A stretch of DNA of 64,000 bases from an uncultured Planctomycetia bacterium (GTDB lineage Bacteria > Omnitrophota > Gorgyraeia > Tantalellales > Tantalellaceae), in NCBI GenBank assembly GCA_964409365.1, contig CAYPCX010000002.1, positions 96,984 through 160,983 of the forward strand, written 5' to 3'. A program made the translations under genes and the position numbers. Position 1 is the stretch's first letter. Each line of letters opens with the position of its first letter. The notes beneath the pieces are model-generated. The model worked only from the letters and a program-made list of their open reading frames with translations, did not search any database and was not told where the DNA came from. Below are positions 51 through 59,300 of this stretch, one piece after another.

Positions 51-3000
51 ATGTACCTCGGAGGGGAGTTCTACAGGTACAGGGATGAGGACGGGACGCA
101 TATAGTGATCTTCGACGGCGAAGAATACGAAGCCGTCCAGAGCGAAGTGGACGAGGATATATTCCTGGTCCAGATAGGTGATGAGAAGATATTGCAGCTC
201 CTCTTCGACGACGGCCAGCCCTTCCTGCGCGATACCGCGAGCGCCATAAGCGAGAGCATACCGATGGGCGAGGCCCTGGAGATGTACAGGACGGACCTAA
301 TTACCGGAGAAGAACTGGACGGCACGGCGTCATATCTCCGCGTGATGGAGAACCGGGATGCCATGGACATACCGGAACAGCTTATTACCGTGAACACCGG
401 TTCCTACGTTGCCCAGGTGACCATACAGTACGACGAGGTGACGGGCACGTTCGGCCTGGCGGAGGGGCATAGCGCCAGGGTGAACGCCGGCACGAAAGAG
501 GTCGAGGTGCTTGACGGCGAAGATAACGTTATCGGGTCGGAGCTCATACCGAGCCAGGAGTTCGAGGTCTTCAATTCAGGCGGTGAGAATGTCGGGACGG
601 TAACGGTACAGTTCGATACGATCATCGAGGGCGAGACGGCCCTGAGCGCGGGATACACCACCGAACTCGACGGGGAAGGGCGCATCGTGACTTCGAGCGA
701 CGTTTACCCGCACGTTTTCAGGTACTGGGATGACGCCCAGGACGCCAAGGTCGTGGTGACCTCGGAATATGAAGGCGACGACGAAGTGGTCTACATGGAC
801 GGGGTGAGGTTCAGGCTGAGGCTTGACGAGTACGGCCGGGTGTTCATCGCCAAGGAACGCGTGGAAAGCGTACCGTTCTGTGACCAGATACTGACGCTCA
901 ACGATAAACCTTATTACATGACCAGGAACGCCGACGGGACATTCACCTTCGAGGACGCGGAGACCGCGGCTGAATATACCAGCACCTTCGAGTCCAGCGG
1001 CGTCGTGCTGGAACCCGTAGTGGAGATAGCCGGGGTGAAGTATTCCATAATCGTGGACGAGCTTACCGGCAGCGTCACGCTTGACGAAGTGACCCAGAAG
1101 GTATCCTCCGACAAGTTCCACATGATAGAGCTGCTCGAGGAGACTTATACCGTGATGGCTGCCAAGGTGAGCGGTATTTACGGTTTCATCAACGATGGGG
1201 GCGTGACCATATGGAGCAGTATAGGCGAAGACGACGTCAAGCGGCTGCAGCTGGGCGGTGCTAACTATACGCTCGAAGCCGAGATCGGCAGACAGCTCCA
1301 GCAGCCCGCGATAGTGGCCGCCGTGGAAAGGTATGGCGACCTGGACGGAAGCGGCAAGGTGGACACGTTCGATATAGACCAGTTCAATGTCTTCGCCGCG
1401 CATTATAAGGACCTGAACGGCGACGGCGTCGTCAACGCGCTTGACGTGACGAGCCTTGAAAGGCTGATATACATAGAAAGCACCAAGGGCATTACGTCGG
1501 AGAACATAGAGGCGTTCAGGGATAAAGCCGACGTCAACCGCGACCTTGTCGTGAGCGTCAGGGACGCCAACGCTCTCTACAGCGCCATCATGAACCAGCA
1601 CGACCTTGACAAGCAGCAGTACGTAACGCTTTTTACCGACCGGTATGCGCTGGACGAAGAAGCCGGTCAGTTTACTGTCCAGGTGATCGAAGAGGGCCAG
1701 GAAGGACATCTTGTAAGAGGCGACGATACCTATCCCGTGGAATATGACGAACTGACCGGTATCTATTCCACCACGATACAGGCGAGTGAATACACTTTCA
1801 CCGCCGCGGACCTTTACTATACCACGGATGATTTTGACCTCCAGATGATGACGGATATCCTTGCCGATATAGACGTGGGCAAGATATTGCAGCCTTCGCG
1901 GCTCGATCAGGCGGACATCAACAAGAGCGGTTTCGTGACCACGAAAGACTTCACCGACCTCCAGGAAGCGTTCACTCACCTGGAGATATGGACGAAGCAC
2001 ATATACGGTGAGGGTGAGGAAATGCCGGACACGAAGCAGGGGATGGACGCCCTCAAGGGTAACATCATAAGCCGCATGAACCAGATACAGTACGCGGAGA
2101 ACCTGAGACAGCAGTATGAGATAACGTCCGTCAAGATAGACCGCGCCAACCTGGACGGCGACGATGACGTGGGCTATGACGACAGGGCCATGCTGCTGTA
2201 TTCCCTTAACGAGTACCCGTTCCTGCGATTCTATGCGGACATGAACCAGAACGCCGCTTTGGATTACGGCGACGTGGAGATATTCGAGAACGCCGTTACC
2301 GACGCCCTGATGACCGATACGCCGCAGCCCGAGTTCATGCGCAACGTCGACATCAACGGCGACGGCATATTCAACCTGCTTGATGTGGAGACCATTACCA
2401 GGGCGCTCAGGTATTACGTCAGCATGGACGCGGATGATGACGTGGACGCGGAAGACATTACGCGTATAACCGAGATAAGGGACTACGTGGACCTGGCGGT
2501 CACTCAGCAGTACGAACTCCTTTTCGCCAGGAGGACCGGCACCAGGAGCTCGCATTACGCCGACCAGAAAGTAAGGTTCAACGGCGAGGATTACTTCGTC
2601 TCCATCACCGATGAAGGCAGGTTCGTGTTCTATGACGGCAAAGAGAATATTTACAGGTCTTACATAGGCCTGGATTTCGTGGAGATAGAAGGTGTTATAG
2701 CCGACGTCTTCCTCGACGAGGACGGCAGGATCGTCCTGGAGGAAAAACACGACCAGGGTGATCCTTACATGGAGAGCGAGCACCTGGCGGACGAAGTGAT
2801 CGACCTCGGTGGAGTATTGTACGATATTACCCATGACCATGAAGAAGGGACAATTACCATAAAGATAACCGGCGGGGAGGATGTCATCATTGATAACCTC
2901 GACCGCGCCTTAAGCCAGACCATAGAGATAGACGGGGCCGGGTACGTGGCGTACACGGAAAGCGGCGATATAGACGGAGAGCTCATACTTGTCCTGGCCG

Positions 3001-6000
3001 CGGATGCCAGCTCCAGGATATCGGACCAGGTCATAGGGTTTGAAGGGGTGATCTACAAGGTGACCTGTAACGCCGATGGTACTTACACCTTCGAAGGCGA
3101 ACTGGAAACAAAGACGAGTTTTGCCGGAGATAACAGGGTGATGCTCGGCGGCGTTGTGTACGATATCCGCGAGAACCTGTTCAACGGCCGCGTCACGCTG
3201 GTGGAATCCTACATGACGAGCAGCGATATCTGCAGCCAGGTCATCGAAGCCGACGGTAAAACCTACGAGGTCGCGGCCAACCTTAATGGCACCTATACCT
3301 TCCGCGAGATAGAAGGCGTCGTTCCGACCGGTGTAACGGCGACCAGCAGCATCGAGAAAAAAGAACGGACCCAGGACAACGTGCCGTATTACCTGCAGAC
3401 GGAACACACCGTTACGCTTACAGGTGAAGAAGAAATAGAAAGGGTGTTCGATATAGAACGCGATTATGAGACGGGTAAGATAAAACTCGTCGAGCAGTAC
3501 CAGACCCTGGAATCGAGGTACGACCCGCTGACCGGCAAAGAAGAGCTCCTGGTCTATTACAAGAAGTCGACGGGCTATAACAGGTTCGAGTGGGAGGAAG
3601 TGGCCCTTTCGGTAAGCTTCAGCGCCGCCGGCATCTTCACTATCGAAGGCCTGATCAAAGAAATTGAAAGTGACGCTTATGGCAACATAACCATCGCCTA
3701 TGGCACCGGCGCCAACTCGTTCACGCAGTCTTACTACTTGAGACCCAGCGAGGACGAAGAGAGGATAGAGGGCGATTTCAAGATCGCCTTTGACGCCGAA
3801 ACGGGACACATAGAACTTACTGAGACGCACAAGACGAGCGCCACGCTTCTCGGCCAGCTTATAGAGGTCGATGATGTGCCCTACGAGGTGCTGAGGAACG
3901 CCGACGGGAGCATAACCTTCAGGGACATCGTGTACGAATCCAGGAGATACACATCGAATCCCGTACTGAACAAGGTCAATATAGAAGGGCATATATATGA
4001 TATCATCCTCAGCCCCTATACCCAGGAGATCCGTCTCGAGGAAGAACATACCGGGGTGAGCCGGCATCTTGCCGACGGCCAGATAGAAATGGAGGGCGAG
4101 GTGTTCTACGTGTTCGAGAATTCGGACGGCAGTTTCACTCTCTCCGACGTGATCGATCTCGAGGACCCGAACGCGGGAACGGTGACCATAGGCCCCGATA
4201 ACGAGTCATTCATGGAAGTTGGCGGGTTTGTGTACGACGCTTCCATCATTTTCAGGACCGAAAGCGGTATAGCCGACGTTAACGATGACGGCCTCATAAA
4301 TTCCGCGGACAAGGAAGACCTGCTCTACGCGGTCAGCAGGATGGGCGCGGTGGATATCACCGGCGACGACTATGTGGACCAGAGCGATATGGACAGGATG
4401 AAGGCCATAATTTCCGGCATTGCGCAGGGCGAGCTCCTCGATCCAATGGAATATTACCGCGTGGACATGAACGCCAACGGCGTCCTCGACGAGGAAGACT
4501 GGCAGATAATAGAGGAAGCGTTCGCCAGGATATACCTCGACGGCGACCTTAATACCGACGGCAGAATAGACTACCTTGACTGGGAAGAGCTGGTCACGAC
4601 GCACGGCACGGCGGGCGGCTACGAAGGCGTGTATACCACTATTTCTGCCCCGGCCAGGGGATACAGCGGCGAGCCGCTCTTTGAAAGGTCGGACATATAC
4701 AGAGTTCTGGAGATAGAGGAGTTCATGGAGCTCGGCGTCGGTTATTACATGCCGGAAGAGCTGGGCATCTACAGCGGCGAGTTTACCGTGTATACCGCGA
4801 CCAGTCCGGAGCTGGTCGGTACGTTCGACATCGCCGGGGATTATTCGACCGACGGCTCGGTCATTCCCGACGGTATGGTCAGCAGGAAGGATTTCAATTA
4901 CATGGACGCGATAGTGTCCAACATCTACAAGTACGACATAAGCGGTGATTCTATCCTGGACGCGGATGACCTCCCGGCCTGGGATTCGATAAAGGACTAC
5001 TGGGACCTGGCGAAGCGTATTTCCGACGAGGATATAAGTACAGCCAACCTGACCGGCGATATCGATACTGCGACCGGCGAAGAGATAGTCGACGGAGCGG
5101 ACCTTGTCCGTTACCAGGATATAAGCGGGTACAACCCGGTGAACCAGACCTTCAGGAATTTCGACGTCAATTCGGACGGCAAGGTCACCATGCTCGACGT
5201 AAGCAACATAAGCAGGGTATATAACCTTAACCAGATCATCGACGCCTGGATACTCCCGTTCGAGGTGGACAAGTTCGACGTTGACTGGAGGCCGACCACC
5301 GAAGCTACCACGGCTTCCGTAGCCCAGCACATAGACGAGATGGAACAGCTTCTCCTGGAGCCGGTGGGCGACGGCATTTACACCACCTCGTGGGCGGACG
5401 TCAACCTCGACGGCGCAATAGACGGGAAAGACCTTGCCATCTATGAGACGCTTTATCTCGATTATATTAATAATTCCGGCGTGCCGGAGAAGCTTGATAT
5501 CGCCGAACCGTCCGGCGTCTATTCGACGGACAAACAGAGGATCCTGAACGTCGCCGATTACCTGGAAGTCCTGGACCTTTACGGTGACACGGTACTTTAT
5601 GACATGAGAGGCATTCTGGCAATGGATGCCATGCTGGACGATCTTGAAGAAGCGGTCATACAGGCGGGCATTTACACCACTCTCGGCGAGTACACCACCG
5701 GCAGGACGTATCTCGGGGATGTCCTGGACATCCTCCAGCAGGCGGACTTCGATTCGGACGGCGCCGTCAGCGCGGTCGACCTGGCCAGGCTCTATGACGC
5801 TTACGAGGCGGAGCTCCTCAGGGCGGAGCTCGGCATCACGGAAAAAGCAGACCTTTACGTCGACGGGGACACGGACGGCTACGCCGATTACGATATTAAC
5901 AAGGACGGGGAGATAGACAATAAGGACCTCGCGGACCTTGAAGCGGCTTACGAGAATTTTGAATCTTATGACATCGCCAGCTACTCAGCAACTGATGTCA

Positions 6001-9000
6001 ACGGCGACGGCCAGGTCGATTCGGACGATCTGGCCGTACAGCCGGACGGCGTGGTGGACGAAGCCGACCTGGCGTACCTGGACCTGGCCCGGGAATACCA
6101 GAGACTCGATTTCACGATAGAGGACCGCGATATACTCGCCGCGAACATTATCAGGGATTTCTACGCCAACGGTTCGGTAAAAGTGGACGAGGACGATTAC
6201 CAGGCGATAGCGGCTAATATGGCTTACGCCAGGGACGTGAACGCCGATATGACGGCGAGCGCCCTGATGGAACTGACGCCGGCGGAATACGAGAGACTTA
6301 TAACCATAGTGAACGCCGGCGGCATGACGGAAGACGACGTGGAAGCCCAGGGGCTTACCGGGCTGGACCTGAACGGTGACGGGCACCTGACGGTGGACGA
6401 CCTGGTGGTCACGGAGGGCGGCGTCGATTACCGGGACGCTTTCGCGGTAGAAGCGGCGTACGATATCCTCACGCAGCACGGGTTCAGCCTCGACGACGTC
6501 CATAAGGTAGACCTTGATTACGACGGGTTCATAACCAGCGATGACATAGAGCTCTTCGAGAAGGTCCTTGGATCGAGTGACCTCCTCGACCCGGCGGTCC
6601 AGCAGGCCGTGGAATCGCTCGGCAACATACAGTTCCAGGGCACGCGCATACCGGTAAGATGGATGAAGCGGACCGACATAAATGAGGACAACCTGATAGA
6701 TACCGACGACCTGGACCTTCTTGAAAGGGCCATGGACTATCACGCGGACGTGAACCTGGACGGCGTCGTGGACGGGAATGATATCGAGGCGATACAGGCG
6801 GTGATAGATTCCGGCGTGATGGGATTCACCGCGGATGAAGTGATAGCCGCCGACCTGAACGAGGACAGCAACGTCGATACGACGGACCTTGCCCTTCTCA
6901 AGGAAGCCGTGGCGCGCGTGTCCAATTATGACATGGACGGAGACGGCCTGGTGAACGGCCTGGACCTCCTGGTGATATTTGACATACTGGGCACCGATCC
7001 GGTCGAGGTCATGGGCGCCCAGAACGAAGAGGCGGAGGCGCTCCTGCAGACGATATACAGCACGGAGTACAAGGAAGACGCCGACGCCTGTGTCGACGCC
7101 ATAGAAGAGCTGATGACCGCTATGGAAAAGCTCAGGCTGCATTCAGCTGACATGGCCGGTCTCATGGGCGCGGATGACCCGCGTAAGCAGGAGATAACTG
7201 ACGGGATAGACGAGAAGTGGCTGGAGCTGTCCGGTATTTACAGCACGGCGGTGCAGGAAGCTTCTACGAAACCGGAAAGACAGCTCACCGACCTGGAAAC
7301 GAGCGCCCTGTACGTGCAGACGATAACCGGCCTTAAGACGGAGACCGGTTCCGCCCGGCAGGCGTCCGGGGCCGAGCATCTGTTGGAAGTGGCCCAGAAC
7401 CTGCTGGGAGAGATCGAGACCATCCGTACCGATATTCACAATACGGGTACGCAGGAAGAGATAGACCAGGTGGACGCCGATTACACGACCGCCAGCGCGG
7501 ATGTCGCGATAATAGAAGGCCTGGTAGGGGATTATAATACGGCCGAAAGCGAAATGGGCTCTATCCTTTCCGCGGCCGAAGGACTTATCGCCGAGCTGGG
7601 ATCCTATCTGGCCCTGGTGGAGGAAAGCAATGACGCGGGTCTTATCCTGGCGCTTGAAGGCCTGGCTTCAGAGGCGGAATACGACATGTTCGTGTATCTT
7701 GTCGGCGCGGCGGAGCTCAAGGCCGAATATTCGCAGAATACAGTGATCGCGGGCAAGGAAACGGAAGTCAACGCCGCCTCGGCCAGCGCGGTATCGCTCC
7801 TCGAAAGGATAAGAGAAGAAGCGGTAAGGGCGGTCATAGCGGGTCTGGATACGACCGTAAATGCAGAAGGCGAGCTTGAGGTCGAGGACGGCTTCTACCC
7901 GACAAACGAGCTCGACCTGGCCGCGATCGCTTCCAAATTCCTGGCCGGCCAGACGCTCACGCTCGAGGCGATAGCGAAAGAAGAAGAGTTCGTGGAATTT
8001 CTCTACGGCGCCTGCTTCACGACGGGACACACCGCCGAAGAGATGACAGCCGCCCTCAACAAACTTTTCGGGACGGGCGATTACACGACCAGGATGGAAA
8101 GGGAACACCTGGCGGAGGAAGTGCTTACCTCGGCGGAATTCACCGCGCAGACGATGGATAATTACGACTTCATGACCATCGTTTACGAGGTGTATCTTGC
8201 CGAAGAGGCCGAATACGGCGACATAATAGCGACTGTTTTGGACCTCAATACCGGCGGCATAACCCGTGAAGAGGTGATAGAAGCATACACCGTTACCGTC
8301 ACAGCGAGAAGGTTCATAGAAGCGGCGGAACGTGATATAACCGACGCCGAGTATGTCCGGATGGTATGCAAGACGTTCATACCGGGAGAATACACCACCG
8401 GCCAGGTGTACGACTGGGTACAGGAGATCAAAGATGAAGTAAAGACCAGGGAAGAAGTCGTGTTGGAGATCTCCGGCATAACGGATCCTGGCGATGACCT
8501 CCATTACGACATATTGAACGCGGCGGACCTGGAGATACTGGATTCCGGATGGAAGGTGTTAAGCGAGAACGATTCCGTCCTGGCGGATGCCGGGCTCGAG
8601 ACGGCAGACTACGCCGCGGAACTTATCGGAATAGACAATACCACGGTAGCGGGAGAAGGCGCGTTCGACGTCGACGTATATGTCGAGACCGTAAGACGCA
8701 TCCTTTCCTCGGAGGCGGAACTCGCCGAAAGCCGGCTGGAAGCGGTCAGCGAAGAGGCCGCCGCTTACAGTTACGCTTCCGCCGTCTATACCAGCGTGTC
8801 CGAACGGTGCAGCCAGGTCGAAGGGGCATATGACATGGTCGAAGAACTCTTCCCAGCCGTAAGCGGCATCTACACGAGCCAGGACCACGACCTCGAGGGG
8901 ACGATGGAGGGATGCTACAAGATATTCAAGCTGAACCAGCTTATCACTTCGGCGGTCGAAGAGAACAGGCAGCAGATAGCGCCGGAAGTGTACGAAGCGC

Positions 9001-12000: not shown

Positions 12001-15000
12001 CCGTGATGAACGGCGACTCGGCTATCACGCAGCTGGTATCCGCGCAGTCGGTCCTTGATGATGTGGATGAGAGAATAGAACTTCCGTGGAAACAGACGGA
12101 ACTGGAAGGATTCAAGCTAGCCGCGAAGCATCTCGTCGAAGAAGCTGAAGCGGACCTCGCAGAAGCCTACCTGAAAGCCGCCGAACATACCACGAGCGCC
12201 GTGGCGGAGACAATAGCGCGTCTCGCGCAGGATATCGTCAGCGACGGGTACGCTACGGCAGGAAAGATAGCCGCCCGGGCGGACCTGGCGCTGAACAGGA
12301 AGGACCGCAATTCTTCTCTCCGTGACAGGACGGAGGCGTGCAAAGAGCTGGCAAGGGTAGCCGGCATCCTGATAGGCGAGTACACCACCAGTCCGCAGCA
12401 TGGCAGGACCCTCATCTTCCTGGCCGAAAGCGCGAAGGAAGAAGCGGCCCTGGCCGCGCTTGAGGCGATAGAGACGTTCCGCACGGCGCCGCTTAATGAA
12501 ACGATCAAGGCGAACGCCCTGGAGATAAACGCGCTGAGCCGGGAAACGGCCGAGAAAGAAGCTTCCTCTAAGGAGAAGTTCGACGCGGCGTGGCTGGCCG
12601 AGATCGTACTTGAAGAGGGCGGCGATTTCACCATGACCGTGGCCGACGGTATATACACCACGGAAGTCTACAACCCGGCGGACGGCCATCTCCTTGAGTT
12701 CATCATGGTCAACAGGCAGCTGGTGCGGGTGATAGACACGGATAGTGCTGAGACAATAGAGGTAAATATTAATAATACTATGTTTAATATTAATACGGAT
12801 GGAAGTTCCGCCTGGAGGATCGAGAAAGAGGACGGCAGCGTCATAAGGCTGGTGGACAGGTACACCGGCCGCGCGACCATGCCCGGCCACGAAGACGAAC
12901 CGGAATGGTCGTGGAAGATCATGGATTTCGTGCTGGACCCGGCGAACCTGGACCTCAGCGAACTGGCGGAGGATATTACCGACTCGTTCCGCGAATTCAA
13001 GGCCGCCTCGCGGATAACCGAAGCCGTAAGTGATTTCTTCACCGCCGTGGCCGAGGCATACCAGTATTCCCTCAAGGAGACCCCGACACCGGAGGAAAGG
13101 GATGAGATCCAGTATTACATGCCGTTCATCCAGATGCTGCTCGTTGTTAACCCGCTCATCCTCGTGGCGGACGGTACCAGCACGATATGCTCCTGGCTGA
13201 TGTCGCAGGGCGCGGCGATAACCAACTGCGCCGTGAAGAGCCTCCTTGAGTATTTCACAGGGGAAGGCGTTACTATCGAGAAAGAACGCCTGGCCGCCGC
13301 GACGGCTATTTCAGATATCACGGCCGGCCTTGTGACCCCGGCCTCGGTCAGCGAAATAGAGACGAGTTTCTTCACCCTTAAGGCGGCGGCCGCGGCGAAC
13401 GATATCACGCTCCACGGCGTGAGGACGGGACTTGACGCCCTGGCTGAAAGGGACATGCCGGTCATCGCGGTGATCGAAGAGGCGTTCCAGAACCACGTGG
13501 TCCTGGTAAAATCGGTTACCACGACCGTGACCTACGTGTCGGACGAAATAGAGATCGTGGAAACGGCGGAAGAGTTCAGCGAGAAGTTCCTGGGCGTCGT
13601 GCTCGCTTCGGAAGAGGCGGACGAGGATGAAGGCGAATCGGCCCTGACCGATGAGGAGCTTCTGGATATCGCCGGGTCACTGGCCAACGTCCTCGAGACA
13701 AAGACAACGAATCTCGTGGAATACCTGACGTTCGCCAGGGACGAGATGCTGGACATCAAGCAGGCTACCACCCGCGCGATCAATTCCCAGCAGGCCACGG
13801 AAGCGAAGAACATAGCCGAAGCCATACTTTTCGAGATAGAACAGGACGCGGATTACGCGTCAAGCGAAGCGGCGAAGGAGAAGAACGCGGATAATGCCGT
13901 TATACAAAGCAATGCCGAAAAAGCGCAGGCGCTCAAGCAGGAAGCCCAGGCGATCTACGCCGAGATCTCGGCGATACGCGACGAGATAGCCCAGCTTGAA
14001 GCCCAGGCGCGCGGCTATGTCGCCTTCGCCAGGATCAGCCGGGACATGCTCGAGAGCATGCTCGCCGACACAGAGGACGCGGTGAGCCTCGTGTCTCTCG
14101 GGGTAACCTGCCTGGACAGCATCAATGACGTGAAAGACAAGATAGACGAATACTGCACGCTTTATAATTACAACACCACGCTCCTGGGTTACGCCACGGA
14201 AGTGGCCGGTTACAAGACCCGCGGCGAGGAAATAGTCCAGCTTCTCCGGAGCGCCTCGGACGAAGCCGTCAACGCGCGTTTCCTTAGCGAATCCGAGTAC
14301 AACCGTGCGGATGTTAACGGCGACGGCGCGGTGGACGAAAATGATATCGCCGATTTCGAGGCAGCCCTTAAGAGGATAACGGACCTGGACTCGGACGGCA
14401 AGATCACGGAAGACGACCTCAACAGGCTCAAGACGCTCCTGAGCTATATAGATTACAACTACTTCATGTCCAGGAGCGAGATATTGAAGGCCGATATAGA
14501 CGGTAACGGCACTATAGATAACGCGGACGCTTCGCTTCTTTCCGACCTGCAGAGCTATCGCGTGGATGTCAACGAAGACGGTTACGTTAACGAGCTGGAC
14601 GTCCTGGCCCTGGAAGAGGCTATAGAGAACAGTATCGCCAGCTACGGTACGGAACTCACGCGCAAGGAATACTATTACCACCCGGACAAGACAGGAGAGG
14701 ACGACAGGACCTATTACTCGCAGATGCCCCAGCACCAGGTCGATATAGCGTACGAAGTGGGCGTAACGGATGAATATGTGGGCCTGACCGGGGCCACCAT
14801 CACGTTCACTTTCAGCAATGTCGTGGACGCGACGGGGCTTATTGCCGGATATGAAGCCCAGCTCAATTTTGAGACCGGAGCCGTCGATATAATCAGGGTG
14901 TCCGATGAAGGCGTTGTCGGCACGCATGCCATAGCGGATCAGGTAGTGGACATATACGCCGAAGGGGAGAAGATAGGCGAAGCCACGGTGGATTACTTCG

Positions 15001-18000
15001 ACGGCATCTATACTTCCACCATACCCGGGGAGTATATCAGGCCGTATCTGAGCGAGGACAGGGACGAGATAATAACGGGTATTACCGGTCCCGACACGTT
15101 CGTGGAAGCAACTGAAGAAGCGAGGAATCTGGCCGTTACCTCGATAAGCGCCGAATCCGCCAGGGTGTTCGCCGAGATGACCGCGGAGTTCGCGGCAAGG
15201 GCCGAACAGTCCGCGCAGTTCTTTATCGCGAAGGGCGGGGAAACCGCGCATTACGAGCTTGCCATCGACAGGGTCCGGGAGCTTGCCAGGGAAGCGGAGG
15301 CCGCGGCGGACAAACTTGCCGCCGAAAGCGGAGTGGACGAACTCAAGACGCTCCTGGACCATCTCGTCGTCGAGACCGAGACCATGCTGGTGAACTTGAG
15401 GGCCAACGAGGACGTTGACCGCGACGGGACGCTGGATACAGAGGACGAGAACGCTCTTGCTGCGGCTGATAACACCACCTGGACGGCGTTCGGTTCATAT
15501 GATATCGACTTGGACGGCAACATGGACGTGGCTGAAGATTTCGACCATGACGGCGTGCTGGATTACTTTGACGACCTTAACGAGGACGGCACCCCGGACA
15601 TCGGAGAAGATGTTAATTATAACGGTGTTCTCGATGACGGGGAAGATATCGACGGTGACGATGAGATAGACCCGACCGAAGACCTGAACGGGAACGGCCA
15701 GTTCGACGAGCCCCTTGAAGACATGGACTCGGACGGCAATTTTGACGACCAGAACGAACTGCGCGGGTTCTCGGACCTTTCCGGTATCAGGTCGCAGCTC
15801 ATGTGCATACAGGCCAGTTACACGACGCTGAAGGATGCGGAAGAGAACAATTACAACCTGAAAGCCCTGGCCGTCGATAAACTCTCGAAGAGCGTCTCGG
15901 AGCTCATGAAGGCCACTACTGCCCATGAAGCCCAGGCATTATATGAAGCCATGATCAGCACGCCGACGGTGAATGACGTTTTGCGCGAAGGCATTGATCC
16001 CGCCGAGTTCCTGGAATATATGAGGGAAACGGATACGGCCATAGACGACCTCCTGATATCCTATTTCGATAACTTCGTGCTGGATACCGACGGCCTCGAG
16101 CTCCGGGTGGAGATAGAACAGCTTGAAGCGGAGATGGAGACCGCGTACCTGGAAGCCATCGGTTCGATAAAAGCGGAAGCGACCGCGCTCGTTGAAAGCG
16201 CGGAAGAGGCGGCTATATTCTCCGTCATGGATACGGAGAAGGTGCTTGAGATCTACGCGGGAGGCGAATTGATCGGCACCGTTACCGTCGAGGACGGCGC
16301 TATTACGGCGCAGAACCTCGGTTACAACTGCCTCGCGAGCATCGATTCGGGAGGCATGCTCAGCATCAGCGACCAGGACGGGACACTTATCTCGCAGGGC
16401 AGCGTTATGAGTTACATCTCCGAAGACGATCTTAAGGCTGAGATCTCCAGGGCCCAGGATAACCGCAAGACCATAAACGAGAGCCGCGACACGCTGATAA
16501 TGATGATGATGAGCACGTCCAATTCCGACGTAACTGTCGCCATAGGCAACTGCTTCAGTATGGTGGACGAGATGCTCACGGATATCAACAATTTTATCCT
16601 TGAGCTTATCGGCACGGTCTCGACGGCCAGGGGCGCCTCGTATGAAGAAAAAGCCAGGCTTTACCTGAATATCGCCGCCGCCGCGGCCGTAGAAGTGGAA
16701 ACCTTGAGGCAGGATATCATCCAGACCGAATACAGCACGATGACCAACAAGGAAGCCGTCCAGGACCTTAAAGCGCGCCTGGCCGCTCTCCAGGCCAAGA
16801 GGAACGAGATACTGGTAGCGATGGACGGGGTCACAGGGGCGTACTTCTCGGTAGACGAGGCCAGCCGGGTAGACTTATCCAGCATGCTGGGGAGCGTCGG
16901 GTACATGCTGGACTATGCTATGGAGACGATAGTGGTGGTAAGGGACACGCTTGTCCTTTATGAAGGCGCCCTGGTAGATGAAGACCTTGACGATGACGGC
17001 CGTCTCGACGTGGACGAAGACCTCGACAATGATGCCAGGCTTGACCTGTACATCGAGGATCTCGACGGCGACGGGCATCTCGACGGGTTCGAGGAAGACG
17101 TCGACGGGGACCGCAACCTGGATATAAACGAGGATCTCACGCGTAACGGCGCCTGGGACGTGACAGAGGACCTCAACGCCGACGGCGACAGGTGGTTCGA
17201 CGTGAACGAGGACATAAATGCCGACGGTACTTTTGATACCGGCGAGGACCTCGATCATGACGGGAATTTCGATAACGTCGATGAACAGGCGCTAGCCGCT
17301 AGTGGGTATACCACCGTAGCCGGGGTTTATACTGACGAATGGTACGCGCACGAGCCGGGTTGTGACCTGGACGATGACGGCCGCATGGACCTCGGCACGG
17401 AAGACATTGACGATGATGACGTGTTCGATCTTACCGAGGACCTGGACGGCGATGACAATTTTGATATCACTGACGAAGAAGCCCTGGCCGCGGGCGGTTA
17501 CACGACCACGACATTGGCCAATAACGAGTATACCACGGTGTGGTACGCGCACGAGCCCGATTGCGATATCGATGACGATGGTTTCATGGACCTCGGCATA
17601 GAGGATATAGACTCGGACGGCAACTTCGACGACCTGTTCGAGGACATAGACGGAGACGGCAAGATGGACCTCGTGAACGAGAAAGATTTCGATAACGACG
17701 GCGTGATGGATATCGTTCCCGAACTGGATCTTAACGACGATGCCGTGCCGGATAACGAGATCGAGGTTGAAGTGGAGGGCGTTGTATACATCGTTCTTGC
17801 CGAGATAGACGTCGACGGGGACAACCGTCTCGACACGGTCAACGAAGATATAGACGGCGATGAAAAGTTCGACAGGGGAGAAGATCTCGACTGGGACCTC
17901 GCTTATGACGCCACCGAAGACCTTGACGGCGACACCGTATTCGATACCGGTGAGGATATAGACCACGACCGCAATTTCGATATCATAAATGAAGCCGCGC

Positions 18001-21000
18001 TGGCCGCTGCCTGGTATACCACGATCGCGGGCCAGTACACGAATGTATGGCACGCGCACGAGCCCGACTGTGACGTTGATGACGACGGCAACATGGACCT
18101 CGGCATAGAGGATATAGACGGGGACGGGGAGTTCGACCTCACGGAGGACCTCAACGCCGACAACAATTTTGATACAGGCGAGGATATCGATCACGACGGT
18201 AATTTTGATACGGGCGAGGACACCGACCACGACGGCGAGCTTGACGGCGGCGAGGACCTTGACGGTGATGGTGAGCTCGACCTCACCGAGGACCTTGACG
18301 GCGACGGGAACTTCGATATCACGGATGAGGAGGCGCTGGCCGCTGCCTGGTATACCACGGTCGCCGGTCAGTATACGAATGTGTGGTACGCGCACGAGCC
18401 CGACTGCGACATAGATGACGATGGTCATATGGACCTCGGCATAGAGGATATAGACTCGGACGGTAGGTTCGACACGACGAACGAGGATATAAGCTCGGAC
18501 GGTATAATGCAGTCCACCGAGGACCTCGACGGTGACGAGAACTTCGATATCGTGGATGAAGAAGCGCTGGCCAGGGCGGGGTACACCACGGCCGGCGGCT
18601 CTTACACCACCGTCTGGATCGCGCACGAAAGCGGCTGCGACCCGGACAATGACGGCCGCATGGACCTCGGTATAGAGGATATAGATAATGATTCGAACTT
18701 CGATGAGGTGTTCGAGGACCTCGACCTTGACAGGCATTTTGACAGCGCGAACGAGGATATTGACGAGGATACCACGTTCGACGAATTCAACGAACTGGCG
18801 ATAGCGGGCGCCGGTTACACGACGCTGAGCAACGATTTCACCACTGTCTGGCACGCTCATGAGCCTGATTGCGACCTGGATGACGACGGTTACATGGACA
18901 GGGGAGAGGACAAGAACGCCAACGGCGCCTTCGAGCTGGACGAAGACATCGACAACGACGGCCACCTCGACGTGAACGAGGACATTGACGGAGACGGCCG
19001 CCTTGACGTCGACGAGGATATTAACGGCAACGGCGTGCTGGACAGTTTCGTCGACTTCTATACCGAAGCCACGGGTATATACACGACGTTCACCGACCTT
19101 ACCTGGGACGCGGGCGACCTGGAAAGCATACAGGAGGCAAGAAGGGTCATCTTCGACGGCCTTGACAGGCTGGTCGTCATTTACGACATCATAGACCCGG
19201 CACAGCAGGCCCAGAGGGATAACGTGGATTCGTTCATCGATTACGGTGAGGACCTCCTCGAAACGCTGGGTGATGACGCGCGGGATATCTATATCTCGGA
19301 AGCCCAGGACAATAACGACGCGCTCTTCGATGAAGTGGAAGAGATTTACTCCGCGGCGGTCGCTTTTCTTGACAGGAGCTACACGGATATTACCATGGCC
19401 CGGGAGATGAGAAAAGCCGCCCTTGACGCGGTAGACCAGATCCTCATGCTCGAGAACCTGCCGAGCCTGGGAGCTTCATACAGTACGTTCAAGGAGACCG
19501 CCGCCGGTTACAGGCATGACCTGGAAGAGAGGCTCGATGACATAGAAGACGTCATAGACGCCACCCTTGAGAACAAAGCGGGTACGTACTACCAGGATAA
19601 GATGACCGAGTATAATGACCTTCTCCTCCAGCTGCGCGAGAAGAAACAGGAATACGAAGAAAAATACGCCAACAAGGCGGACGACACGCTGTACAAGCTC
19701 CTGAAGAGGCTGGAACAGGCGTCCGGCCTTATACTTTCCGACGCCGAAGGTACGAGCGCGGTCGCCGCGATCGCCGCCAGTGAGGAAGAATACGGCCTGG
19801 TCCAGCTCCTGGAAGGCGTATACCTGCAGGAGACCAAGGTCGCGGCCTGCGATGACCTCATAAGCGCCGAGATCGAGGTAGCCAGGTCGATATTGAGGGG
19901 CGAAGACGTAGACGATGACAACGTCCTGGATGTTGACGAGAAAGCCCTGGCTGAAGCGGGATACACTACGCAGGGCGGCAGCGGCGAATATACGACAGTA
20001 TGGATCGCGCACGATCCGGGTTGCGACATGGATGACGACGGGCACATGGATAAAGAGGAAGACCTCGACGGTGACGGTGAGATAGACAGCTTCATGGACC
20101 TCCTGGACCAGAACCCGGATATGACCGCCCTTGTCGACCAGATTGAAGGATGCGCGCAGGCATCTGAATATGCCCTGACAAAAGCCCAGGCCATATCGCT
20201 GGGTAATCCTAATAATGAGCACCTGAAGAATAAGGTAAGTGCCCTCGCGCGGGAAGTGGCCGATCTCAGGAACGCGGCCGATCTCATGAAGGAAGTCCAG
20301 ACGGTCGTGGAAAATACCGCGCGCGTGGACGACCTTTCCGACGCCATAGACGTTTACGAGTCGTTCATGACAACTACGGTCACGAAAGCCGCCACAGCGG
20401 ACGATACCGACAAGGAAGCGTATCTCTCGGCGCTTGATATGGCGGAAGAGGGCCTGGAAGAAGCCCAGGATACCGTCCTGAGCGATTCCATGGAGGCCAG
20501 CGACGCGACCGACCAGATCGTGGTGATAGCCAGCGCTATCAACGAATATGTGGGACTCTTCGATTCGTTATTCACCTCGCAGGACCTGGCCGACATGGTG
20601 AACTTTGTCAGGGGAAGGGCCTCGGCGGCCGTTATAAGCGCCCAAAGCGCCTCTTCTAGGGCTATAGAGTATACCCTTGACCCGGACGCGGCGGAGACCG
20701 AAGAGCTTGAGGCATGGGGCGACCTTCTGAACGCCAGGTCCGATATATCGACCAGCTGGGACGCGTATGAACAGGACACCGGAGACCCTGTCCTGGCGCT
20801 CGATGATTACGCGGAAGCCGTCCTGGATTATGAGGAAGCTTTCTATACCATCCACTCGGCGAGGCCCGGCACTTCCGATTACACGACCGCGATGAACGAT
20901 ATCGCCGGCCTTGTCAGCCAGGAAAGGAATTTGGCGAAGGAACTCGCCAATATCCAGGAGACACTGACGCAGGGCATCCTCCCGGTCCTGAGAGAGGAGT

Positions 21001-51000: not shown

Positions 51001-54000
51001 TCAACATCGCCGCGGGGGCCGGAGTGGTCAATGACTTCCAGGCTTTTGATAACATGGTTTCCAGTATAATGGGCGAAGTGCGGGAAGGCGGGAATAATGT
51101 CAACATCGCTTCCGTAGCCGCTAACATAAAGGGAGCTGATATCGACGTGAAGATGGATACCGCGAGCAAAAAGGTCGATAACGTCGCGGTTTCCCGCCTG
51201 GGCGTGAGAATGCAACAGGCGCAGATGGGCAGGACGGTCGATCTGCAGAACGTCCTGGGCAGCGTGTACAATGCCGTCGATAACGTTATCATGACGGGCA
51301 TGGTGACTAACGCCCAGGACATGGTGAACGCGGTATCCGTAGCGAGATCGGTCCTGGGCGCGGAGCTTGGGATGGAAGCTATGAACTGTGACCTCACTGT
51401 CGAGATGCTGGACGGGACCGAGCTTACGGCAAGCCTGGATACAAGGGGCAATGTGATGAGCGCGATGGCCGCCCGGACCCGCGAAGGGGTTCGCGTGAAG
51501 CAGGACCAGCGTGACGGGAAGATAGATATCGATGGAGTGAATGATCTCGTTGTCGCGGCTAACAAGATAGCGGCGCGTTTCGGGCGTGTAGCCGCCGGCC
51601 GCGATCTCGCCAGGGCGGGCTTCGCGTCAATGGCAAAACTGCGTAACATCATCGGCACCGGGAACGCGGCGAATTGCGCCATGACCCTCACCGCTCTGAC
51701 CGGGACGGAAGTGACGCTTGTCACCGACAGGCGCGGCATGTTGACGAGCATGACCGCCATGGCAAGAGGCGTGAGCATGCAGAAGATGAAGATGGACGGC
51801 ATGATGGACCTCGAAGCGCTTAAGAGAGGGGCCAGTATGTTGAACGGCCTCGTTAACGCGGCCGAGACGGCAGGCAGGCGCGGCATGGTGACCCATAGTA
51901 ACCAGCTTGGCCGCGCGGCTATAAGGGCGACGGTCAGCATGATGGAACATATGGGCGCGGAGAACGCGGGTGATTGTACCGTGAAGGTCACGGCTATTAA
52001 CGGCACCGGGGCCATGATAGCCACCAATGAGCGTGCCGGTGTCAGGAGCGTAGGCGCGATCAGAAGCGGCGTGACCATGGAACAGCTGAGCCGTGACGGC
52101 AGGGCGGACAGTAGTGTGATAGACAGCCTCGTAAGCGCCGCGGAAACTCTCGACGCGAGCGGCAAGACGATGACCGGTGTCCAGGGGCTTGTTAACGCGG
52201 CGGAAGCGGCAAGGTCCGGCCTGCGGACGGATATCGGCGCCCAGGCGATGGACTGCATGGTCACGGTCGAGACCCTGAGCGGGACAAAGCTCACCGCGGT
52301 CACGGACATGACGGGTAACGTCACGGATGTGTCGGCGGCCCGCGAAGGAGTGATAGTCAGGCAGGCCCAGATAGAAGGCAGGATAGATGTCCAGAGAGCG
52401 GGAGAATTAGTTAATGCCGCGGAGACGATAAACGCCAGGGGCGCGGTAACGGACAGCCGGCAGCTTGCCGATACCATGAACAAGGCCATGCTGGATCTCA
52501 GGACGAGTGTGGACGGCGTGGTTAACATGGCCAACAGCGCCATTACCCTTACGGCGGCTAACGGCACGGAACTCGTCGGTACGACCGACAGTTTCGGGAA
52601 TGTCGCGAACGTGACCGCGACAAGCGGCATATTACACATGGAACAGATGCAGTTGGGCGGAAGAGTGAATATTGACAGGGTGAACAACATGGTCAATGCC
52701 ATAGAAGCGGTCAGCCCGGATATCAGCGTGACAGAGAGCAGAGAGCTCCCGGCGGCGATGGATAAGGTCATATCATACATGATCACGAGGGGTTTCAGGG
52801 ATATTAAGGATATGGCCAATAGCGCCATCACAATTACCGCTCCCAGCGGCACCGAATTGACGGTCATGACCGAGGAAAGAGGAAGCGAGATCGTGAGGAC
52901 CGGTGTCAGGTCCGGAGCGGTCCGGATAGAGCAGGCGTGGCCTGACGGCATGTTTGACGTTGAAGTAGCCGGTCGTACCGTGGATACCGCGGAAGCTATC
53001 GGCGCCGACGCTGCCCTGACCCGCAGCGATGAGCTCGGAACTGCGCTGGCCGCGGCGTTCTCGCGCTTAGGAACAGGTCTCGGAGTAGGGGAGAACATGG
53101 CAAACACCGTGCTGACCGTCACGGCCGTGAACGGGACCAAAGCCGCGGCGCTGACGGACGATCTGGGGAGGTTCGATAGTGTAGCCGTTTCGAGCGGAAT
53201 GATAAAGATCGAACAGGCCCAGGTCGACAGGAAGGTACGCGTGCCGGGGATAAACGGCCTTGTGAGGGCGATCGAGGCCGATGCCGGGCTTACCAGGATG
53301 GCTGACAGCCGCCAGCTCGGCAGTACGGCCGTTTCGGTCATTTCTAACATGAGGACGGTCCTCGATGGCAAGGAGAACACGGCCAACAGTATCGTGACCG
53401 TCATGGCCCCGAGCGGAACGGGGGTCTCGGTAAGCATGAATAATGACGGTGATATTACCCGCACGTTCGCGACGCGCGGCGGTATAAGAATAGAGCAGGC
53501 GCGGCTTGCGGAACATCTGGACAGCCGGGATGTGGACAGCCTGGTGAATATTGCGGATGCTGCCGGTCTTGCCGGTCCGGTCGCCGACAGTAGCGCGCTT
53601 GCCGAAGTGGCCGCGGTGAAGATAGCGGGCTTAAGAAGCGACATTGGCGCCGGTGAAATGGCCAACCGCACTATCGCTTTTATTGCCGAGAACGGCACGG
53701 AAGCTCAGGTAACCACCGATGATCAGGGCATGGTGGACCGGGTGGCTGCCGGGCACGAAGGGGTTCGCATGGAACAGGCCCGGCCCGGCGTGAGTGTTGA
53801 TAATGAGGCGCTGAACGGTCTTGTCGGCAAAGTGGAAGCGTTGGCCGGGATGAGAGCGGCTGACGCGATCAATGGCGCGCTTGACTTCGCCCGCGAGACA
53901 GGAATTAATACGGAATTAAGCTTTGACCTTGTTATGGATATACGGGTCGAAGCCGCCACAGTTGACAGGGGTCTGGGCCGGTTAGAGGTTATACACGCAA

Positions 54001-56090: not shown

Positions 56091-56330
56091 GAAACAGGAT
56101 TGGCGAATATTACGTAACTCATTATGTTTAAAGAAGAAAACCTTGAGTTAAGGTTTAAAAAATTCAGCTTTTGAGAACTAACAATCGGGCAAAATGGTGA
56201 TATACTTGAATTAAAGGTAATATAATAATGATAGTCATACAAATAGCCAAATAGCAGGGATACAGGAAGGAGGCATATTTTTTTGGATAATTATTAAAGA
56301 TATTTAATAAGAGCAAAAGAAGGTGTGCTC
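56091..56330 (+). promoter_or_regulatory. AT-rich promoter / 5'UTR region of gene 2
   Basis: About 240 nt of roughly 30% GC between the terminator and ATG56331, flanked by ~58% GC coding DNA. TATAAT at 56221-56226 with a weak -35-like GTGATA 18 nt upstream (56197-56202). SD-like GAAGGTG at 56319-56325. An orphan GGAAGGAGG at 56266-56274 has no usable start codon after it. Confidence 0.4.
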
Positions 56331-59300
56331 ATGTTTCCGTTCGGTGATGAAAAAACATATCAACGGGGCGATGGCGGTTTGGATAGATCCCCGGGGTCAT
56401 GGTTTTACAGGTATGTAAGTCATGTAAAGGGGAAGTCTGTCCCGGATCATCCCTCAAAGCCCAAAGGAGTGGCTTCGGTCTCAGCGGACAAGAATATACG
56501 GCCGTGGATCAGGCTCATCTCTGTGGTCCTTATTTTTACGTTCCTTTTCCAGCAGGTCTCTTTCGGCCAGGTGCAGCCGCCGGCGACACCACTAGTCAAA
56601 GGACGTGTCGATCTCAATCAGGTCTCGATACCCCGCGATATCGCCATTACCAAGGACATACATAGAACCTCCAGCAAGGAGCTCATCATAAACATCAAGG
56701 ATATCCACGACAACCTCGGCGCGCAGGAATCGATCGTGGCGGTCCTCGAGAACCTTGCCATGAATTATGACATCCGCTTTGTCGGCGTGGAAGGCTCGGA
56801 AGGGCTGATCGACATGAGCGTGATCAGGGATTTTCCCGACGCCGAGGCGAAAAAGATGACGGCCGAATACCTCATGAGCCAGGGCAGGATCTCGGCCGGC
56901 GAGTTCTTTGCCGCGCTCTCGGACCGCCCGGTCATGCTGTACGGGATAGACGACAGCCGGCTTTACCTGCAGAATTACCACGCGTTCATATCCGTCAATA
57001 AAAAGAAGAAGCTTAACATGAAGCTCGTGGGATCCCTGAGGAACGCGCTCGGCGCGCTCGGGGACCATATATTCTCCGACGAGCTGAAGCTGCTTAACAG
57101 CAATTCCATCCTGAACAACAATAACAAACAAAAAAGGTTCACCCAGAGGTGGCACAGCGTCGAGGAGATAGGAAGAAAATACGGCATCGGTTATTCTGAA
57201 TATCAGAACATCAACGCGCTGATGGATTCCATCGAACTGGAAAAAGAGATCAACTACGCGGCTACCAATGTCCAGAGGGACGAACTGCTCGACACGCTGG
57301 GCGGCAAGCTGAAAAGGGACCGCCTGGAAGAACTTATCCTGAAGAGCCTTTCTTTCAAGCTCGGCAAACTGTCGAAGAGCCAGTTCTATTCTTACATACT
57401 TCTCCTGGCCAAGGCCGCGGGTATCGACCCGTCGCAGTACAGCGAGCTGGAGAAGTTCTGTGATTACGTTAACCTTTACGAATCCATAGATATAGCCGGC
57501 CTCATGGACGAAATGGACGATTACGAGTGCAGGATAAGGGAGAAGCTTTTCAGGAACGACGATGAGAGGGAGCTCACGACGCTCATGAAGAACACCGAGA
57601 TACTGAACAACATCTTCTCGATCAAGCTTACCAGCGGCCAGCTTCGTTACTTCAGGGACCACATGGGCGACTTCCGATGGAAAAGGTTCCTTGATTTTAT
57701 CAGGACCCGCTATAAGAAATACCGGATACCTCTCCCTGCGGACCTGGCGGACGTAAGCGGCCTTTTTGAACAGCTTCCCCAGGCCTCGGATTTTTACGCG
57801 GCGGCGACGGACAGGAACAGGGCCATGGTGGAGAACACCATAGAATATATGAGAGAGAACGACGTGAGCGTAGCCGCCGTGGTGACCGGAGGTTTCCATA
57901 CAAGAGGTATCACCGAGATCCTCAAGTCGGATCAGCTTTCCTATATAGTTCTCCTGCCGCGCTTCAATCCCCAGAAAGGTAAACGGCCGTACGTGACCGT
58001 ACTCACCAATAAGGATAAGGAATACGAGCCTTATTCGGGATCGGGCGAATACCTGGCTACCACCTCGGAATATGCCCTTAAAAAGGCCATACTGGAAGGG
58101 ACCGGTATGAGCAAGGAGGACCTGAGGGCGGTATTCGAACCGATGGCAATGTCCCTCGGGCTCTCTTACCTTTTGAGGATGCAAAGGGGCATGGTCAATC
58201 CGGAAGTGCTGCAGGCGAGGATGCAGGACCTTTTGGACCAGTATTTCGATGACCTTATAGACAGCACGTATGAACTGGTGAAAGAAGGGAAAACAACTGA
58301 CGCCGAATTCAAAGAATTCCAAGAGGTCATAAACGGTCTGCGCGCGGGTAAACTGCAAAGAAGGGTGCTGGATGACGGCACTGTAAGGATAGGCATAGAA
58401 AGCGAAGAAGGCCTGTTCTTTGTCTATGATACCGAGCTTGTCGAGGATGAATCCGGCCAGAGAAAAATGGCATTAAAAAGATATGAGACGACCTCAAGGA
58501 AAAACTTTGATACGGCAATGAAGAGAGAAGCGCCCTTCAGGGCCGAAGCGGAAAGGATGGCGGAAGTCACCGAGATACTGGAAGAATCGCTTTTGAAGGC
58601 TAAAGAACTTCGGGAAGAGTCGGCGTTCCGGGCAAGGGAACTGCGCCTGAGGTTCTTCCTTGATCAATTAAGCAGGTACGAGGGCAGATTGGACCAGAAG
58701 TCTTCCATCAAAGTAGCGATTTTGAGGATAGCCAGGCGGAAAGGAATGGAAGAACTTTTGGAGACCGGCGAAGACGATGTGATTGCAGCAGCATTCATCA
58801 GGGCCCGGGAGGCAAAGAAAGCGGTCGAAGAAGAAGCGGCAGGGATGGTAGAAGCACTGGGGCCAGGGGTAGAGGTTGAAGCCAGAGTAGGAACGATGCA
58901 CCGCATGGGTATGGTTGAACAGGAGAATTTTTCCGCTAAAGAGGCGGATTTCATAAAGGAAGTTGGAGAACGAAGAAAAACCGGAGAACAAAAGATCGCG
59001 AAAAGGAGCATAGGATCAGAGGAAATAGGAGCAAAGGCAGAGGAGATAAAAGCGGAAATTATTTATGTCGATCTGGGCGACGAGGCCGATGGTTACCATT
59101 TTGAACATTCGGACGGGACAAAAATTATTGTTGTGGACGAAAGGTTTAAAGGGACAACTATTGAAGACGAGATAATATATCATGAAATGGCCGAGATCTA
59201 CTGGGAGAAACGGGGAATCGGTGTGCTCGATGCCCATCGTCTTGCCGCTGTCCTCCAACTCATGGAGTATGGAAGCGACGGATTGCAACTTACCCCATAC

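Follow-up and report, generated by a model that had tools for sequence, protein, structure and literature searches.

Dockerin-type giant proteins of the Omnitrophota combine dockerin/EF-hand and calcium-binding repeats with a C39-like domain, and carry C-terminal transmembrane (TM) anchors followed by SecA-related domains; roles in attachment to host or prey cells and in cell-wall processing have been proposed for them (West-Roberts et al. 2023, bioRxiv 10.1101/2023.11.21.568195). The same architecture class was recovered in a 2026 preprint as a cluster with PF00404 and PF18884 (bioRxiv 10.64898/2026.06.07.730766). Here we describe a 64,000-nucleotide stretch of contig CAYPCX010000002.1 (referred to in its full length as the window), nearly the whole of which is filled by two very large plus-strand genes. 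The first of these encodes a small single-cysteine module that recurs seven times, six of them within an array of acidic calcium-type loops. The module appears in neither of the two giant-protein preprints, in which the word 'cysteine' has 0 occurrences. A preliminary description of this DNA had picked out the array and the module but missed their context: the region is a segment of an 18,636-aa giant protein of an already described class, and its loop array is of a common type.

The window protein shares with the Dockerin-type giants a very long open reading frame (ORF), many dockerin/EF-hand repeats, a C39-like domain, a TM cluster near the C-terminus with no TM helices over most of the N-terminal part, and a SecA-DEAD-like domain. 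The module's only other carriers are likewise proteins from Omnitrophota metagenome-assembled genomes (MAGs), one of them annotated as dockerin-containing. The window protein differs from the published giants in that it is not 30,000 aa or more in length, in that PF18884 TSP3_bac, discoidin, and CBM35-like units were not detected in it, and in that the confident SecA_DEAD domain is in the adjacent ORF, whereas the giant ORF itself has only a 'CGQGKT' P-loop. The host protein thus appears to fit the published class, and the segment described here looks to be a variant, specific to its lineage, of a type of giant adhesin already known. No phylogenetic marker gene lies in the window, and its assignment to the Omnitrophota is deduced from the module's other carriers and from this architecture.

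When all six frames of the window are scanned with a local hidden Markov model (HMM) built from its seven module copies, each copy scores 74-83 bits (E 1e-24 to 1e-27) and nothing comparable emerges elsewhere. The module is 39-42 aa long, starts at position 12 of the preceding loop, has 27 aa ahead of its own loop, and follows the consensus DExALAAAGYTTxxGxYTTVWxAHEPDCDxDDDGxMDLG. Four parts can be distinguished. After the preceding calcium loop comes a short segment, D-E-E-A-L-A-A-A-G, which is predicted to be helix-like and to exit the loop as in a dockerin F-hand. This is followed by a predicted aromatic/Thr beta-hairpin, YTT-x2-5-G-x-[YF]T[TND]-[VE]-W, around a Gly turn, then by a turn of 5-7 residues ending in an invariant Cys, and directly afterwards by a specialized calcium loop, C-D-x-D-x-DG-x-M-D. 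Module spacing is irregular, ranging from 64 to 172 aa. The repeated unit with one conserved Cys and aromatic residues, the six copies in an array of about 2 kb starting exactly at nt 16977, the seventh copy downstream, and the degenerate copy upstream are all as the preliminary description of nt 16977-20030 (aa 5643-6660) had them (Table 1), with the qualification that the degenerate copy is discernible by eye, scores insignificantly with the HMM, and lacks both the Cys and the W-x-AHEP stretch.

Table 1. Positions of the arrays, module copies, and other features in the window (nt) and in the giant protein (aa)
Feature	nt	Strand	aa	Remarks
Array B	16977-19049	+	5643-6333	691 aa, 2.07 kb; about 45 helix-less 12-13-aa calcium-type loops, six modules
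Module copy 1	17280-17396	+	5744-5782	HMM 77.1 bits; DEQALAASGYTTVAGVYTDEWYAHEPGCDLDDDGRMDLG
Module copy 2	17472-17597	+	5808-5849	HMM 74.0 bits; hairpin turn 3 aa longer
Module copy 3	17988-18104	+	5980-6018	HMM 81.0 bits
Module copy 4	18324-18440	+	6092-6130	HMM 83.0 bits; nearest to consensus: DEEALAAAWYTTVAGQYTNVWYAHEPDCDIDDDGHMDLG
Module copy 5	18555-18671	+	6169-6207	HMM 77.1 bits
Module copy 6	18789-18905	+	6247-6285	HMM 76.5 bits
Module copy 7	19935-20057	+		HMM 74.6 bits; 1.03 kb past copy 6, in array C
Array C	19902-20093	+	6618-6681	One loop, module copy 7, two loops
Array A	15408-15758	+	5120-5236	About 9 loops and degenerate module
Degenerate module copy (array A)	15444-15533	+		DENALAAADNTTWTAFGSYDIDLDGNMD; by eye; HMM -0.4 bits (not significant)
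Non-acidic strand-like insert between modules 2 and 3	17718-17807	+	5890-5919	30 aa: PELDLNDDAVPDNEIEVEVEGVVYIVLAEI; part reads ...EIEVEVEGVVYIVLAEI
Giant ORF	51-55961	+		18,636 aa; holds arrays A-C and all module copies in frame
Second very large ORF	56298-64000	+		At least 2567 aa; runs past window end
SecA_DEAD domain, second (downstream) ORF	60588-61805			E 6.5e-19, 68.7 bits
N-terminal zone of canonical dockerin-type F-hands (calcium loop and helix)	1329-7025	+		
Second dockerin cluster	14301-14651	+	4751-4867	Directly upstream of loop arrays
Peptidase C39-like domain	13341-13616	+	4431-4522	

Nine copies of the module are available from three lineages, and in all of them E2, A4, A6, Y10, a Thr, the Trp, an Ala, and the Cys are invariant, as is the D-x-D-x-DG-x-M-D that follows. 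Each module has one Cys, and the six in array B are the sole cysteines in its 691 aa; the Cys codon is TGT in two window copies and TGC in five. The loop after the module has Cys at position -1 and Met at position 8 in 9/9 copies. Of 50 loops scored in the window, 39 have Glu at position -1, and Phe or Leu predominates at position 8; Met occupies position 8 in 11, and seven of these 11 are module loops. Because positions -1 and 8 of EF-hand-type loops both face the hydrophobic core, this arrangement suggests that the Cys, Met, Trp, and Tyr residues of the module form a small core of their own.

No named family could be assigned to the module. Nothing in Pfam is significant for the 2067-aa region, the 706-aa array, single units, or pure-loop pieces, and the region, array, and single units have no match even at E<=10, save low scores on fragments. 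NCBIfam returns nothing for the module unit and only compositional ClfA/ClfB/SdrD noise far under the cut-off. The module profile finds no PDB sequence with an E value better than 2.2, and the best PDB matches for this profile and a six-loop stretch (E 0.77-2.2) are lanmodulin-type EF loops and unrelated proteins. The module accordingly remains unlike any named domain, as had been proposed, and appears to be previously undescribed.

The module copies, taken with their flanks, are no more than 55-75% identical at the DNA level, and no exact repeat of the region exceeds 35 bp. Between copies the mean pS is 0.72, which is near synonymous saturation, versus a mean pN of 0.20, and dN/dS is 0.06-0.33 where dS could be computed. 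They therefore seem to be old duplicates that purifying selection has maintained in their plus-strand reading frame; neither a recent expansion, nor collapse during assembly, nor chance would account for them. Minus-strand ORFs over the region (such as 17292-18965) were considered and set aside as by-products of GAC/GAT-rich plus-strand coding, and the dN/dS values back the plus strand.

It is hardly credible that the module is an artefact, whether a chance likeness in low-complexity acidic sequence or the product of repeats that were collapsed or expanded by the assembler. In favor of such an artefact we counted the repetitive nature of the region and the fact that repeats of giant genes are known to fragment assemblies (bioRxiv 10.1101/2023.11.21.568195). 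However, the copy number is argued from sequence divergence: because the copies are only 55-75% identical and share no exact repeat longer than 35 bp, assembly collapse or expansion is unlikely. The E value per copy is about 1e-25, dN/dS is well under 1, and the module was recovered independently in other genomes; its independent occurrence in two other proteins among 1.84e9 puts it beyond chance.

These two proteins emerged when the seven-copy profile was run exhaustively by hmmsearch against 1.84 billion representative proteins, a check put forward with the preliminary description; there were 2 matches at E<=0.001, P0052 (E 3.8e-10) and P0053 (E 9.4e-9). Both genes are truncated and lie on short contigs, in GenBank MAGs that carry the label Candidatus Omnitrophota bacterium; P0052 is annotated as 'dockerin type I domain-containing protein, partial'. 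Each has a single copy with the same loops on both sides (DEQALATAGYTSITYGEFTTVWIANDACDLDDDGRMD in P0052 and DEQALAAAGYIALGGEYTTVWIANDVCDLDKDGNMD in P0053), and both keep the Cys, the Trp, and the ALA-AGY residues. The His of AHEPDC is not conserved, the relatives having ANDAC or ANDVC with Asn in its place, and in both the nearest other Cys is about 140 residues or more from the module. Beyond the module, P0052 and the window protein are 23-32% identical in beta-rich repeats and dockerins, whereas P0053 has only the module in common with the window protein.

When one genome per GTDB species was scanned by pattern, the sole match was once more the sequence of P0053, from a MAG of Candidatus Omnitrophota, and a metagenome pattern scan found only the FG-GAP propeller proteins L004 and L005, which match via 'CDxDxDGxMD'. 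A nine-copy module profile found nothing among 36 candidates, a weak negative since the known carriers P0052 and P0053 were not recovered either. The module thus appears to be very rare and restricted to one lineage, with the proviso that by our estimate a 39-position profile needs about 45 bits or more for significance in the 1.84-billion library, so that divergent copies, such as the degenerate one of the window protein, would escape. P0053 (locus L002/L003) also contains a different Cys mini-module, 'DG(V)YTTIEIACVY(S/T)TSGELxGYEMGGTFYEGKLxDYAVD', four times between calcium loops (aa 612-700, 914-1000, 1272-1360, and 1631-1720). Small single-Cys beta inserts in calcium-loop arrays may be a recurring theme in these Omnitrophota proteins.

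The loops that surround the module are of a different standing. Fifty loops from arrays A-C give the consensus D1-[IL]-D3-x-D5-G6-x-[FLM]8-D9-x-x-E12 with a period of 12-13 residues, the pattern in array B being EDxDxDGx[FLM]Dxx. D1 and D/N5 are each present in 50/50, D/N3 and D9 in 48/50, F/L/M/I8 in 47/50, G6 in 34/50, and E/D12 in 31/50. This is the pattern of EF-hand and dockerin loops, in which positions 1, 3, 5, 9, and 12 are ligands, position 6 is Gly, and position 8 is hydrophobic. Array loops abut, position 12 leading to the next position 1, so that helices could not be accommodated between them; a 9-residue helix follows only the loop that precedes each module, according to low-confidence AlphaFold2 models. 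In a segment slightly wider than array B (aa 5640-6345) Asp and Glu make up 35% of the residues, the net charge is about -226, and there are 22 strict and about 42 loose Dx[DN]xDG motifs. Sub-arrays with a period of 36 nt are reported in array B by TRF. Array C is flanked by Ala/Glu/Leu-rich sequence that looks helical by eye.

The description of the surrounding repeats as calcium-binding in type therefore stands, in that the Dx[DN]xDG pattern is present. This motif occurs in a dozen or more unrelated families and structural contexts (Rigden et al. 2011, PMC3123361), and thus by itself assigns no family. A close likeness is to the F-hand of dockerin type I/EF-hand repeats (PF00404), which has the same 12-residue loop and, as at the loop before the module, a short helix after it. 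In contrast to dockerins and EF-hands, the array loops are contiguous and helix-less with a 12-13-aa period, and the profiles PF00404 and PF13499 have no significant match in the arrays.

Such arrays are widespread. With the array as query, phmmer recovered 51 secreted or surface proteins (P0001-P0051) of many different phyla, including YadA-anchor adhesins, subtilases, FlgD-like proteins, and Ig-like proteins, with the same helix-less 12-aa 'EDxDGDGxLDxx' repeat and period, often at least 10 in tandem and with up to about 17 strict motifs (for example P0002, P0004, and P0008). All were matched via their acidic loops, and the module is present in 0/51. The acidic array thus appears to be a widespread repeat type that Pfam leaves unannotated, and only the module to be unusual. 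We know of no solved structure of a helix-less array of 12-aa loops.

The label TSP3, under which the array had first been placed, is not supported. The wire of calcium ions in TSP3 (Kvansakul et al. 2004) and the bacterial TSP3 repeats of OmpA-like proteins (Dai et al. 2017), as presented in papers citing these studies, offer a functional analogy, in that they too are contiguous Asp-rich DxDxDG loops without regular secondary structure whose folding would need Ca2+. TSP3 repeats, however, match a profile of their own and are stapled by pairs of Cys, either inside a repeat or from one repeat to another; the loops of the window protein are free of Cys, and their hydrophobic residue is at position 8, not 7. 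It is highly improbable that these are true TSP3 repeats (TSP_3 or TSP3_bac) with a divergent Cys spacer. The DxDxDG-x2-D-x2-[DE] loops are superficially alike, and PF18884 repeats have been reported in Dockerin-type giants (bioRxiv 10.1101/2023.11.21.568195; bioRxiv 10.64898/2026.06.07.730766). On the other side, TSP_3 (PF02412) reaches 7.7 bits (cut-off 25) on one 62-aa piece and otherwise has no match at E<=10 to the region, array, or pure-loop fragments; TSP3_bac (PF18884) is never listed for these and has no match anywhere in the giant protein. Neither signature, 'DxDxDGxxDxxDxC' or 'D[ST]DGDGLPD', is present, and there are no Cys pairs within the repeats. Moreover, in P0011 and P0039 helix-less loop arrays lie next to genuine TSP3_bac repeats as clearly separate units. 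The loops are thus most simply classed, from their sequence pattern, as EF-hand/dockerin type and not TSP3. RTX repeats have no Pfam match, and GGxGxD (from the RTX nonapeptide GGxGxDxUx) has 0 occurrences in the array and the whole giant protein, so that the comparison with TSP3, FG-GAP, and RTX profiles that had been called for yields no match reaching the cut-off.

FG-GAP or calcium blades (PF01839, PF13517; Rigden et al. 2011) share with the module the order of strand, small residue, Dx[DN]xDG loop, and hydrophobic residue, and the combination of Cys(-1) and Met(8) is found also in ordinary blades of L004 and L005, in their 'CDLDNDGKMD' loops. This raises the question of whether the modules, six or seven in number, are what is left of FG-GAP calcium blades and form a beta-propeller-like domain, with the acidic loops as long excursions between blades. 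Seven is the usual number of blades, and hhalign aligns the strand-Cys-loop half of the module to the strand-loop-strand of the calcium blades of L004 with Prob 82% and E 1.1e-5 over 23 columns, including the strand before the loop. We nonetheless regard such a propeller as very improbable. Controls with bare loops or dockerins give Prob 36-72% over 10-12 columns, showing that the DxDxDG loop contributes most of the score. FG-GAP and FG-GAP_3 are not matched by module fragments, the best FG-GAP_3 score being 15.9 bits (cut-off 26.9) on a bare loop. The usual blade is four-stranded and about 50-60 aa long, whereas the module has about 2-3 strands; the spacing is irregular, with copy 7 lying 380 aa away behind helical-looking sequence, and the homologues are single-copy.

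The reading that we favor, tentatively and at a little under an even chance for the statement as a whole, is that the region is a calcium-loop stalk of a giant surface protein, in which the module serves as a folding nucleus or rigid joint. The arrays are N-terminal to the predicted membrane anchor, and the region would belong to what is presumably the extracellular part of a Dockerin-type giant of the Omnitrophota. At the low Ca2+ of the cytoplasm the loop array would be unfolded; after export it would bind Ca2+ and fold into a stiff, highly charged, calcium-loaded spacer that would keep adhesive or enzymatic regions of the giant at a distance from the cell. The module would contribute a small hydrophobic core made up of its Leu/Ala, Tyr, and Trp residues, Cys(-1), and Met(8) of the next loop. 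This core could act as the nucleus or joint of an otherwise core-less acidic array, tying a dockerin-like loop-helix to the loop that follows. Counting in its favor are the purifying selection on the copies, their occurrence between the same loops in P0052 and P0053, the EF-hand/dockerin pattern of the loops alongside true dockerins in one protein, the specialized loop after the module, and the match of the host protein to the published class. A 9-residue helix at ITDEEALAA, the sole element to recur in both AlphaFold2 runs (at low overall confidence), and the alignments to a dockerin F-hand (Prob 20%) and to calcium blades (Prob 82%) also fit. The descriptive part of this explanation is much more secure than the mechanistic part, which depends on a predicted fold, predicted Ca2+ binding, a presumed extracellular location, and a putative role as joint or nucleus.

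Several observations weigh against the stalk-and-joint reading. The AlphaFold2 models are of low confidence: one unit, with a 9-row alignment, has a pLDDT of 56.6 that drops to <50 in the hairpin, and a pair of units, with a 3-row alignment, has 36.6. The likeness to known profiles is modest, since both the dockerin and the calcium-blade scores appear to be only slightly over the generic DxDxDG background. For dockerins, the preceding loop and helix align to the protein's own F-hands with an hhalign Prob of 20%, which is not decisive for the module as a degenerate dockerin, a candidate that we set aside. A residue that serves only in packing would not normally be as strictly conserved as the Cys, and Ala, Val, or Ser would be expected in some copies. 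Finally, P0053 and unrelated phyla (YadA-anchor, subtilase, FlgD-like, and Ig-like proteins) have loop arrays without the module, and an array therefore does not require it.

A different role, which we judge unlikely but worth taking seriously, is that of a binding site: the exposed aromatic/Thr hairpin (Y, Y/F, W, Y/H) would bind a glycan of prey or host, or the module would act as a mini-dockerin that recruits a cohesin-like partner, the copies providing multivalent attachment. Conserved aromatic and Thr residues such as those of the module are typical of carbohydrate-binding surfaces, the host protein belongs to a class proposed to function in attachment and cell-wall processing, and the helix of the module follows a calcium loop as in a dockerin F-hand. 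However, the module has no similarity to CBM, lectin, or dockerin profiles in Pfam, PDB, or NCBIfam, it is very small for an autonomous binding domain, and the relatives have a single copy each.

The conserved Cys had been taken to suggest chemistry between repeats or the bridging of metals. On such a view the module Cys would pair in disulfides, linking one module to another or one giant molecule to the next, or would bridge a soft metal with the His and Met, and would thereby cross-link or redox-gate the stalk. Its invariance in 9/9 copies from three lineages, despite synonymous codon change, counts in favor, as do the even number of Cys in the array (six, with no others in 691 aa) and the adjacency of His (AHEPxC), Cys, and Met in the window copies. 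We consider a thiol or metal function distinctly unlikely all the same. P0052 and P0053 have one module each and no other Cys within about 140 residues, and intrachain disulfides between modules are therefore not a conserved function; inter-repeat Cys chemistry thus fails as a conserved requirement. Metal bridging through the neighboring His fails likewise as a conserved trait, the residue being Asn in both relatives, and the irregular spacing of the modules is a further objection; in the window protein itself either kind of chemistry may still operate. Most Omnitrophota are described as anaerobes, and extracellular disulfides are less favored under such conditions.

A cupredoxin-like His/Cys/Met site was rejected on the same lack of His conservation, and a Thr-Gln ester or thioester cross-link domain was rejected because a conserved Gln is lacking and the module is much smaller than such a domain. 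C39 double-glycine processing sites were also considered, but GG is not consistently present in the module. A more specific proposal, which we regard as improbable, is that the module is a thiol-active unit in which an unpaired Cys at the mouth of a calcium loop, beside the invariant Met and Trp, enters into calcium-gated intermolecular disulfide, thioether, or metal bridges. If this were true, stalks would be polymerized into a surface lattice, or a component of the prey-cell surface would be captured covalently, and ultra-small bacteria with a predatory or episymbiotic way of life would thus have a covalent adhesion element of a new type.

Elsewhere in the giant ORF, Pfam recognizes Dockerin_1 in five stretches (E 7.3e-32) and DUF4214, and by pattern there are about 20 true dockerin F-hands, at aa 427-2325 and aa 4751-4867. 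A module-like element, EEAVIQAGIYTTLGEYTTGRTY, lies within the dockerin zone at nt 5646-5711 (aa 1866-1887), with a dockerin loop about 12 residues on; it resembles the helix-hairpin half of the module (HMM E about 0.3) and may represent a progenitor of that half. The Peptidase_C39 match, in the middle of the protein, scores 26.3 bits when scanned alone (cut-off 22, E 7.4e-6) and 20.6 bits inside a long chunk; it covers profile positions 38-131 of 133 and is preceded by a hydrophobic segment at aa 4355-4373. The translation has a multi-pass hydrophobic cluster at about aa 15070-15610, with hydropathy peaks at aa 15082 and 15589, followed at aa 15951 by the P-loop 'PCGQGKTF', which has no Pfam match. 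Past these, near the C-terminus, are ten tandem repeats of about 75-105 aa (nt 51087-53849, aa 17013-17933) with a core of approximately 'NMANSAITLTAxNGTELxxxTDxxGNV', also without a Pfam match. The N-terminus of the ORF is MYLGGEFYRYRDEDG (window nt 1-60), in which a signal peptide or hydrophobic segment is not obvious. The second ORF has, besides SecA_DEAD, weak matches to the SecA P-loop and preprotein-binding domains, and its SecA-like region has no match in a 5.8-billion-protein set at the strict cut-off of E<=1e-10.

The tripeptide 'YTT' is found 30 times in window positions 51-28000 (aa 200-9250 of the giant protein), where YT[TS] occurs 36 times versus 5.6 +/- 2.3 in shuffles. It is mostly present as G-[IVE]-Y-T-T, often directly ahead of a calcium loop, as in GIYTTSWADVNLDG at aa 1777, and is frequent also in the Omnitrophota relatives P0052 and P0053 (5 and 9 copies).

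At present the module adds incrementally to a class of proteins that was already known, and it makes no long-standing question testable. The acidic repeats illustrate a widespread helix-less EF-loop type that is not annotated by Pfam and is easily mislabelled as TSP3. The giant proteins of the Omnitrophota are largely unannotated, and the module HMM provides a usable marker for one subclass of them, as well as a structural target. If the invariant Cys should prove to be chemically active, it would bring covalent chemistry into the cell-cell attachment of these bacteria.

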